A program made the position numbers and the translations under genes. 55,084 nt of DNA from Peptococcales bacterium (GTDB lineage Bacteria; Bacillota; Peptococcia; Peptococcales; BICA1-8): contig JBMNUR010000001.1 of NCBI GenBank assembly GCA_050946395.1, positions 1-55,084 of the forward strand, written 5' to 3'. The notes under the pieces are model-generated. The model was not told where the DNA came from and made no database searches. It saw only the letters and a list, made by a program, of their open reading frames with translations. This document shows, in pieces, positions 3,352 to 45,095 of this stretch. The stretch's first letter is position 1. Each line of letters opens with the position of its first letter.

Positions 3352-3472
3352 CAAAATACCCCCTTCAGAATAAATTATACCCTGGCGAAGGGAAAAAATA
3401 CCTTCAAAAGTTGGAATGTTACTATCGACCAACCCAATAAATTATCCCAGTAGTCTAATAACGCGCCTACGT

Positions 3473-4231
3473 TTAAATCGTCAATGCGTTTAGAAACTCC
3501 TTTGACTTCAATTTCTTGCCTAAACAAAAAACAATATGTAAATCCAGTATTTCATCCAATTCTTTTTTAGCATTAGTAGAAATCCGTAAACGATTAATTT
3601 TTCTTAATTCCATAGTCATAAGCTGTCTCAATATGACACATGTTTCTCCGCTGGCTTTGACAACTGAAAGTCCGGGCTTATCACTTAAGCATTGGCCACA
3701 GAGAAAGCCACCGAGTTCCGGAGAGAAATAATTAATACCAGCTTCTTTCCGGCCACAATTGGCACAACTACCTAAAATAGGTTCATAACCCAATTGCCGC
3801 AATAAGCGAAGCTCCATGACCTTTGTGGCTAGCCAAGGTTCTTCTAGGGATAATAAATATAAACCCATTAAAATTACCTTAAAAAGCTTTTCATCACTTT
3901 CCCCTTCAGGTATGAGATTTTCGAGGAGGTCAGCTAGATAAGCAGTAGAGCTCATCCGGGAAAGGTCTTCCCTTAAAGGGGCAAAAGTATTAATGGGTTC
4001 TGCTTGGGTTACTGTAGCTAAATTTTTTCCTAGATAAAGTACCACATTGGTATGGCTAAAAACCTGGACTCCGCCACGCAGTTTACTTTTTGGTTTTTTT
4101 ACTCCTTTAACAATAGCTGCAAGCTTTCCTGCCTTTTCCGTATAAAGAGTAAGAAGCTGATCTGCTTCATTATAATTTCGTGCCCGTAAAACCACCGCAC
4201 TAGTTTTCAAAATTTCCGGCAACTGCTTCAC
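3473..4231 (-). CDS. recO: DNA repair protein RecO
   Basis: 252 aa ORF with GTG start. It has an OB-fold-like N-terminus and the CANCG...CGQC zinc motif typical of RecO, and the conserved position after yqzL. Confidence 0.88.
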   Translation of the reverse strand: MKQLPEILKTSAVVLRARNYNEADQLLTLYTEKAGKLAAIVKGVKKPKSKLRGGVQVFSHTNVVLYLGKNLATVTQAEPINTFAPLREDLSRMSSTAYLADLLENLIPEGESDEKLFKVILMGLYLLSLEEPWLATKVMELRLLRQLGYEPILGSCANCGRKEAGINYFSPELGGFLCGQCLSDKPGLSVVKASGETCVILRQLMTMELRKINRLRISTNAKKELDEILDLHIVFCLGKKLKSKEFLNALTI

Positions 4232-20581: not shown

Positions 20582-20748
20582 AATTAATGTATACCTCCTA
20601 TTAGTGGCTAGTTTTGGGTTATTTATTGGGTAAGTATTCAGTGCTCCTTGCTATGACACGATGTCACGATATAACCTTTTTTATTTTCAAAACTGTAGTT
20701 CCTGTAGGTACGGGCGAAGCCCTAAATATGCTACGGGGCGTAGCCCCT

Positions 20749-20968
20749 CAGAATGTAGACAAACTCCATATTTATCAACGTTACGCTGGCTCAGACAATT
20801 TATTGTGAATGAACTCAACGGCTTCAGGAATTAGCAAAACTCACCTTCGGTTCAAACAGTTGCTAATTCTGGTCTTCAGCCGTCTGCGTTCTTTGTTCTA
20901 AACTCGCCAAATGCTTCACTTATGATAAAAATATATGGATTTTGTTTTGAATAACTTTGTCAACAGGC
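20749..20968 (+). repeat. 220-bp imperfect-palindrome element, copy A (MITE-like or structured RNA)
   Basis: About 95% identical by eye to the reverse complement of 44767-45060, except for the apical segment. Termini are TGTAGACAAACT / ACTTTGTCAACA (10/12 TIR). It is flanked by GCTACGGGGCGTAGCC on both sides. Confidence 0.8.
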
Positions 20969-21006
20969 TACGGGGCGTAGCCTCTAAGTTATTATACCCC
21001 AATATT

Positions 21007-44671: not shown

Positions 44672-44766
44672 GTTAATAAGCAGGAACGGTGCTACTTACA
44701 AAAAACACCGTTCCTGCTTGACTACTTCGTCTAATGTAATTATGCGTCATAAATGACGCATAATCA

Positions 44767-45060
44767 GCCTGTTGACAAAGTTATTCATAACAAAATCTAT
44801 ATAATTTTATCATTAGTGAAGCATTTGGCGAGTTTAGATAAAAAGAACGCAGACGGCTGAAGACCAGAATTAGCAACTGTTTGACCCGACACTTAATTGC
44901 AATAATTAACTCTGCATCTTGAATAAAGAATAGTATGTATCATGAGTTTCCAATTAAGTGTCGGGGAGTTTTGCTAATTCCTGAAGCCGTTGAGTTCATT
45001 CACAATAAAATTGTCTGAGCCAGCGTAACGTTGATAAATATGGAGTTTGTCTACATTCTG
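44767..45060 (-). repeat. 294-bp imperfect-palindrome element, copy B (inverted relative to copy A)
   Basis: The reverse complement matches 20749-20968. The 9-nt apex ACCTTCGGT of copy A is replaced by an 81-bp hairpin (44885-44965). It is flanked by TGCGTCATAAAT(G/A)ACGCATAAT on both sides. Confidence 0.8.
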
Positions 45061-45095
45061 CTGCGTCATAAATAACGCATAATTTACATCATAAT

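Follow-up and report, generated by a model that had tools for sequence, protein, structure and literature searches.

The window analysed here, a stretch of 55,084 nucleotides at the start of contig JBMNUR010000001.1 of a Peptococcales bacterium (assembly GCA_050946395.1), carries two copies of a small repeated element that folds back on itself. The copies part company at the apex of the fold, where copy A has a tip of 9 nt and copy B has a hairpin of 81 nt. The repeat is best filed as a non-coding miniature inverted-repeat transposable element (MITE) of the IS1182 family, and the difference at its tip is routine sub-family length variation in a bacterial MITE. The explanation that we favor, with a probability of roughly 0.62, is that of an IS1182-type foldback MITE whose long tip was gained once and collapsed in the window's genome, after which the short form was amplified.

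Copy A lies on the plus strand at 20749..20970 (222 bp), bounded by the terminal inverted repeats CAGAATGTAGACAAA on the left (20749-20763) and TTTGTCAACAGGCTA on the right (20956-20970). Copy B lies on the minus strand at 44765..45060 (296 bp); on the plus strand its right repeat reads CAGCCTGTTGACAAA (44765-44779) and its left repeat reads TTTGTCTACATTCTG (45046-45060). The whole of copy A folds as a rod, as does copy B (z = -4.25), and no open reading frame of 60 or more amino acids overlaps copy B. Outside the tip about 210 bp of the two copies can be aligned with few differences. The center of copy A is AAAACTC-ACCTTCGGT-TCAAACAG, its plus strand around the tip being GGAATTAGCAAAACTC ACCTTCGGT TCAAACAGTTGCTAATTC, and the center of copy B, on the minus strand, is AAAACTC-[81 nt]-TCAAACAG. 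Both motifs that border the tip are unpaired: AAAACTC, 5' of the tip, is found at 20836..20842 (plus strand) in copy A and as its reverse complement at 44966-44972 in copy B, and TCAAACAG, 3' of the tip, is found at 20852..20859 (plus strand) and, again as the reverse complement, at 44877-44884.

The tip of copy A (20843..20851, plus strand) consists of a 3-bp stem, ACC/GGT, around a TTC loop. The tip of copy B (44885..44965, minus strand) has two arms of 15 bp that are perfect complements (CCCGACACTTAATTG at 44885-44899 and CAATTAAGTGTCGGG at 44951-44965) and a 51-nt AT-rich loop. These positions and sequences are exactly those given in the initial annotation, whose 81-bp hairpin with perfect arms is confirmed: folded as single-stranded DNA, the long tip with its neighboring helix is more stable than shuffled sequences (z = -5.0 to -5.9). 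The 9-nt tip, which it describes as a minimal hairpin, has only 3 bp; these are present in the RNA fold and absent from the minimum-energy fold of the DNA. Below the tip, helix P2 of copy A pairs GAATTAGCAA (20828..20837, plus strand) with TTGCTAATTC (20860..20869, plus strand), the corresponding arms of copy B lying at 44971-44980 and 44867-44876; helix P1 of copy A pairs ACGGCT (20818..20823, plus strand) with AGCCGT (20878..20883, plus strand).

The window belongs to a draft genome of a Firmicute, here G000, of 3.36 Mb in 463 contigs (38% G+C, 94.6% complete). A BLAST search of this genome yields 63 left and 60 right ends of the family, and the ends that can be paired define 40 full elements of 214-372 bp, so the repeat is by no means confined to the two copies that had been recognized at the outset. 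Numerous G000 contigs terminate within MITE copies, and the 12 internal orphan ends all belong to truncated or internally deleted copies. The full copies have conserved ends that form an inverted repeat, with CAGAATGTAGACAAA on the left and, when read from the opposite strand, CAGCCTGTTGACAAA on the right. Of the 40 full copies, 32 are abutted on either side by 15-28-bp direct repeats, and each of these is a distinct, complete local stem-loop, often one that resembles a terminator. In the window, copy A is flanked by CGGGGCGTAGCCCCT (20734..20748) and CGGGGCGTAGCCTCT (20971..20985), and copy B by a 22-bp hairpin duplicated at 44743..44764 and 45062..45083. The repeat thus has the features of a MITE: terminal inverted repeats, small size, lack of coding sequence, many copies, and target duplications at independent loci. 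Several of the G000 insertions (with flanks on C30, C49, C56, and C7) lie within members of a GGCGACCAAAGGTCGCC-type hairpin repeat and close to arrays of heptamers (CACTCTTT, GTGACTA), and the target hairpins in part form a repeat family of their own.

The assignment to the IS1182 family is made because an element of another genome has the same ends together with an IS1182-family transposase. In G003, which represents another genus of the same family, a 1.6-kb element (L173:1234-2840) is bounded by the terminal repeats of the MITE (CAGnnTGTnGACAAA); it opens with CAGACTGTCGACAAAG, and its far end, read from the opposite strand, is CAGATTGTAGACAAAC. The left end of the MITE matches the right end of this element at 15 of 16 bases, and the right end of the MITE matches its left end at 14 of 16. 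The 490-aa protein that the element encodes scores 452.7 bits on the NCBIfam model NF033551, IS1182 family transposase (cut-off 270), and also carries the Pfam domains DUF772 and DDE_Tnp_1_6. An IS1182-family transposase is most likely the enzyme that mobilizes the MITE. Three DUF772 transposases of G000 were considered as its autonomous partner and rejected, as they are without the MITE terminal repeats.

The family has been sought in two ways, by BLAST over the order (54 genomes) and, over the class (88 genomes), with a covariance model, R1, built on the 133 positions at the center of the element, and both searches place it in the same four genomes only: G000, G003, and G006, which represent three genera of one family, and G011, which belongs to another family. 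A scan of genome contigs with the 17-mer AAACAGTTGMTAATTCT returned mostly chance matches; its sole lead is the metagenome-assembled genome 'Clostridia bacterium AS01afH2WH_13', which has many copies. The ten G011 copies (loci L177-L202, for example L202:1501-1634 with its flanks) are without the CAGnnTGTnGACAAA ends, and no obvious hairpin duplication is seen at any of the ten. They end instead in a 15-bp outer stem (GGTAATTTATTATCA / TGATAATAAATTACC) that covaries between copies, and may represent a different or older kind of element that has the core in common.

A census of the tips in G000 gives ACCTTCGGT, the form present in copy A, in 44 copies, ACCTTCGGC in 2, and ACCTTCGTT, ACCTTCGATTAT, and CCCTTCGGG in 1 each, together with long hairpins of 81 nt (4 copies), 72 nt (2 copies), and 45 nt (4 copies). 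The 72- and 45-nt tips are loop deletions in which the arms are intact. One divergent G000 copy (C16) has the tip GCCCAAGGGC. All ten G011 copies have tips of 8 nt (ACTATCGT, GCTATCGC, GCTAGCGC, GCTAAGGC, GCTATCAC). In G006 the main lineage carries a hairpin of 101-114 nt and two divergent lineages carry GCTAAGGGC and GTCCAAGGGC, and in G003 there is one hairpin of 97 nt. Several G003 and G006 copies have had the whole center deleted; in the intact copies the tip is closed throughout, at lengths of 8-10, 45, 72, 81, and 97-114 nt. As a description, the variable-length closed apex of the initial annotation is thus borne out in the intact copies. Its term for the difference, a hairpin-for-hairpin swap, misleads and overstates the change, because the CCC/GGG closing pairs are common to the basal short tips (GCCCAAGGGC), the long hairpin, and CCCTTCGGG, so that the stem is constant and only the material inside it varies; in addition, the likely direction in G000 is from long to short.

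The arms of the long tips in G000, G006, and G003 are CCCGACACTTAATTG, CCCGGCACTTAATTG, and CCCGACACTTAACTG, with one compensatory change of an A-T pair to a G-C pair, an A-to-G substitution in one arm being matched by T-to-C in the other. The 3' halves of the loops can be aligned (AAGATGCAGAGTTAATTATTG versus AAGATACAAAATTAATAGTTT), and the rest of the loop differs by insertions and deletions. Among 24 distinct long hairpins, 23 have the same orientation. Taken together, these comparisons show that the long tips of G000, G006, and G003 are homologous. On G000 contig C85 (2967-3047) the 51-nt loop, taken relative to its host element, is inverted and exactly complementary in order to that of copy B (its reverse complement), and this is by its sequence a flip between the arms at the level of DNA. 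Since the C85 loop is inverted, the sequence of the loop is therefore not read. A 'flip-flop' of the loop as a regular feature of the element was considered and rejected, the inversion being found in 1 of the 24 distinct hairpins.

A second internal module is also variable. This segment of 84 bp (TAGCCTAAATGAAAG...AAGTTTTACT) comes directly after GCTTCACT and is present in roughly one copy in two, in those that make up a 300-bp class (for example C409:1196-1500), and it is absent from window copies A and B and from the G006 and G003 copies. No free-standing module is found, 29 of 29 BLAST matches being inside the element.

Insight into the direction of the tip change comes from a maximum likelihood tree of the flanks (114 columns, tip excluded, midpoint-rooted). 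In this tree the short-tipped lineages (G011, L023/L203 of G006, and L188 of G003) are basal, and the main lineages of G006 and G003 fall together with all G000 copies in one clade (support 81/80) that is marked by the long tip. Within the clade, long- and short-tip copies of G000 are interleaved on branches of near-zero length. The backbones of these two G000 forms diverge by 5-6%, versus 19-29% when compared with G006 and G003 (71-83% identity across the genome comparisons), and the basal C16 copy is ~75% identical to the G000 copies. Pairwise divergence within G000 is 6.9% among long-tip copies, 4.0% among the 216-bp short-tip copies, and 2.4% among short-tip copies that have the 84-bp module, which suggests that the long-tip copies are the oldest, the 216-bp short-tip copies intermediate, and those with the module the youngest. 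Two long-tip copies are without recognizable target duplications. These data suggest that the long tip is ancestral to the sub-lineage, and that ACCTTCGGT may have arisen by a later collapse of this tip and then given rise to the main burst in G000.

In its simplest form the series of events would then be as follows. In the oldest lineages the tip is closed by a tiny stem, either CCC/GGG around 2-5 nt or a 2-bp stem around TATC. One sub-lineage would have gained, once, a long palindrome inside the CCC/GGG stem, with the arms CCCGRCACTTAAYTG...CARTTAAGTGYCGGG and an AT-rich loop, and this long-tip sub-lineage would have populated three genera, that of G000 included; copy B retains the long tip. 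In G000 a loss of the bracketed interior of CCC[GACAC...AAGT]GTCGGG would give the 9-mer CCCGTCGGG, one substitution would convert CCCGTCGGG to CCCTTCGGG, and a two-sided change of C-G to A-T would convert CCCTTCGGG to ACCTTCGGT. The single CCCTTCGGG copy of G000 is a candidate for the intermediate. The collapsed form ACCTTCGGT would then have been the source of the main amplification, copy A included. We infer both the order of the tip changes and the route of the deletion.

Several observations weigh against this history. The support of the long-tip clade is only moderate, at 81/80 from 114 columns with a midpoint root, and MITEs can pass from host to host and swap segments with one another. 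The tip type and the 84-bp module occur in all four combinations, by recombination or by recurrent loss, which may blur the direction of change, and a 372-bp copy at C7:1338-1710, with both the long tip and the module, is flanked by different hairpins on its two sides, as if two copies had recombined to produce it. Given the four combinations and the mismatched hairpins, exchange between copies therefore occurs and could mislead. The proposed deletion needs an extra substitution to reach CCCTTCGGG. The closing pairs of ACCTTCGGT, A-C...G-T, are like those of the G011 tip ACTATCGT, so an old short form has perhaps been retained. In the G000 draft, at 94.6% completeness and in 463 contigs, no autonomous element with the MITE ends was found. 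Finally, three near-invariant G-T pairs are confined to the plus strand of copy A, as would be expected of a strand-specific fold.

Some of these same points can be assembled into a different history, in which the short tip of G000 is the retained ancestral state and the long hairpin arose by palindromic expansion of, or insertion into, the tip loop; the two forms would have existed side by side from a time earlier than the separation of the host genera, their flanks being homogenized within each genome by gene conversion. The short tips of all the basal lineages, the closing pairs that ACCTTCGGT and ACTATCGT have in common, and the evidence of recombination between copies are all in keeping with it. 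Such a history would, however, need sustained conversion of a flank of ~200 bp with the tip spared, and it is at odds with the greater age of the long-tip copies in G000. Moreover, the sole G000 copy with a short tip of the basal type, C16, is only ~75% identical to the others and has a different tip, GCCCAAGGGC. We consider this history unlikely.

The helices below the tip bear on what the foldback is for. Pairing in the central part was assessed in 69 matches from the four genomes, with 62 distinct rows counted. In these, 93% of the cells are paired, versus 83% in column shuffles and 42-55% when the partners are slid; two-sided changes are present at 18 of 26 pairs, and the covariation score is 0.30 versus 0.135. 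Helix P1 has compensatory changes at all 6 of its pairs across the four genomes, and helix P2, GAATTAGCAA/TTGCTAATTC in G000, is found elsewhere with matched partners as GAATTATCAA/TTGATAATTC, GAATTCTCAG/CTGAGAATTC, GAACTTTTAA/TTAAAAGTTC, and GAATTTTCCCA/TGGGAAAATTC. AACTC is invariant in a ten-sequence alignment from the four genomes, and the unpaired AAAACTC and TCAAACAG are retained in the intact members of the 69-match alignment, with rare changes in single copies. What is conserved is the pairing of the lower helices together with these two unpaired motifs.

Within bursts, departures from a consensus pair are one-sided (19 versus 1 two-sided in G000, and 65 versus 3 in G006), whereas the differences between genome consensuses are two-sided and keep the pair (3-10 versus 0-1). 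Pairing is therefore kept by selection in the propagating lineage, and resting copies are not repaired. Such a pattern speaks for the foldback having a part in propagation. Automatic templated repair as the sole cause of the covariation was rejected, given the young copies with uncorrected one-sided changes. Large bursts have come from both tip forms, with ~48 short-tip copies in G000 and at least 32 long-tip copies in G006; the length of the tip is therefore neutral for propagation, and the tip would serve as a length-tolerant, sequence-indifferent cap.

A covarying fold with conserved unpaired motifs is also what a structured RNA would present, and to the initial annotation the tip difference looked more like the replacement of a helix of variable length, known from structured RNAs, than like a nested insertion; it took the UUCG-type loop of copy A as a hint that the strand with this loop is the functional or transcribed one. 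According to this explanation the element would encode, or function as, a structured RNA of the plus strand of copy A, in which the tip is a peripheral helix whose length varies. Besides the covariation, the three near-invariant G-U pairs of that strand speak for it, and with them G-T pairs outnumber A-C pairs by 181 to 34. In addition, many of the elements would be co-transcribed, given their position between the stem of a terminator and the T-tract that belongs to it, and MITE transcripts that fold are known (review, PMC10969869). When the three positions are left out, however, the count falls to 40 versus 33, and of the three, two are part of a stretch of purines that faces a stretch of T. 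The insertions have no preferred orientation relative to the T- or A-tracts of terminators (8 versus 5, with 6 at both and 13 at neither), the loop is inverted in one copy, and individual copies decay freely, as expected if the constraint acts on propagation alone. At the gathering threshold the sole Rfam match in the window is a T-box at another place, and a search with copy A gives no match at values up to E = 5. It should also be noted that although the covariation supports the fold, a constraint at the level of DNA would yield the same outcome.

The argument from the UUCG loop does not survive comparison with related tips. Between CCCTTCGGG and ACCTTCGGT the pairs 1-9, 2-8, and 3-7 are kept, which fits a 3-bp stem with a TTC triloop and not the C(UUCG)G register, and the loops of related short tips are TATC, TAAG(G), TAGC, or AA, so that UUCG is conserved in no relative. 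The long hairpin is not flagged as a terminator or promoter by a consensus scan. A structured RNA thus seems improbable, and the tip difference is no evidence for a new RNA; we infer instead that the foldback matters for transposition as DNA, not as RNA.

A more specific, and still speculative, proposal is that the foldback, with its covarying helices, its AAAACTC and TCAAACAG motifs, and a closed tip of any length, is the form of the donor that the IS1182-family transposase recognizes, the enzyme reading extruded or single-stranded hairpins at both donor and target. We consider this rather unlikely. If true, it would explain both the duplication of whole hairpins at the target and the selection of pairing in propagating copies only.

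The long hairpin has also been examined as a repeat in its own right. It is present 10 times in G000, always between the AAAACTC and TCAAACAG of the MITE. A pattern search with the arms gives 18 matches in G000, 75 in G006, 1 in G003, and 0 in G011, and with BLAST and the pattern search over these four family-carrying genomes no arm match is found outside the element in G000, G006, or G003. The AACTC flank is present at 32 of the G006 arm matches; of 14 partnerless G006 arms that were fetched, 13 have the other flank of the element and 1 has AACTC, and 13 of the 14 are at contig ends. A metagenome-wide scan in which both arms were required returned 3 records and no free-standing repeat: a bioreactor contig with a complete G006-type element, an unrelated G+C-rich coding region, and a 67-nt hairpin (3424-3490) inside a 16S ribosomal RNA gene on L228 (contig Ga0182238_1003307). 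The last of these, which has perfect 16-bp arms (CCGGCACTTAACTGGG...) and lies between TTGCCAGT and AGGAACTC, is probably an unrelated helix expansion. As the initial annotation had stated, no duplicated bases are found at the 81-bp junctions, where the AAAACTC and TCAAACAG flanks are unduplicated; nor do the four genomes or the metagenome scan contain the stand-alone 81-bp unit with target duplications that it had named as the finding that would speak for a nested transposon. That an independent palindromic mobile element of 81 bp entered the short tip and deleted 9 nt, for which the perfect 15-bp inverted arms and the opposite orientation in one copy might be cited, is accordingly highly improbable, given that there is neither a free-standing copy nor a target duplication, that the hairpin is always at one and the same site and has diverged in step with the element that carries it in three genera, and that the inverted copy matches the reverse complement of the copy-B hairpin exactly (100% identity), as a flip between the arms would have it.

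The IS1182-type foldback MITE can be compared with several known systems. IS1272 of Staphylococcus, a member of the IS1182 family, is reported to target inverted-repeat structures of varied sequence and to take the place of the structure it targets, leaving no duplication (Wan et al. 2017, PMC5678879). The present MITE is like IS1182 elements in its CAGnnTGTnGACAAA ends, which match both ends of the G003 element, and like IS1272 in that it inserts at DNA stem-loops that vary in sequence and in length. It differs from what is reported for IS1272 in that 32 of 40 copies have a duplicate of the whole target hairpin at each side, and from IS1182 elements in having no gene and a conserved foldback interior that is not derived from the interior of the G003 element.

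The closest analogue of the tip variation is provided by the Correia repeat enclosed elements (CREE) of Neisseria, which fall into length classes of 153-157, ~105, and 69-73 bp, all of them multi-copy, according to whether central core segments are present or missing (Snyder et al. 2009, PMC2649163). Both are bacterial MITE families with discrete length classes, and the tip difference is comparable to the CREE classes. CREE, however, have an unrelated transposase and host, what they lose is a core with an integration host factor site rather than a palindromic tip, and a duplication of hairpin targets is not described for them. Short and long forms also exist among other intergenic repeats. The ERIC sequences (enterobacterial repetitive intergenic consensus), which are imperfect palindromes found in enterobacteria, have short and long variants produced by deletions or insertions at fixed internal sites; they are unlike the present family in sequence and hosts and have no known link to IS1182. 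Variable peripheral helices of RNAs are similar in having a closed helix of differing length at a fixed point, conserved junctions, and covarying helices beneath; the MITE differs from them in having no clear strand bias, no Rfam match, and no orientation preference.

The family is an undescribed hairpin-targeting MITE of Peptococcales-like Firmicutes. Its natural tip variants, of 9, 45, 72, 81, and ~100 nt together with one flipped loop, show that the length of the tip and the sequence of its loop are immaterial to amplification, and they constitute a ready mutant series for the recognition of DNA shape by an IS1182-family transposase.

Two minor features of the element may be added. Derivatives with extreme internal deletions persist in G000 (C267:1954-1981 and C12:7642-7687), and the smallest, a 30-bp remnant (GTAGACAAACTCCATATTTATCAACAGGCT), is still flanked by two copies of the target hairpin. 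Within the element, AAACTC and TCA(A/G)ACA(G/A) are each present three times, near the ends, beside the tip, and once more per arm (in copy A at 20749-20767, 20836-20859, and 20900-20910), and these motifs could be repeated protein-binding sites.

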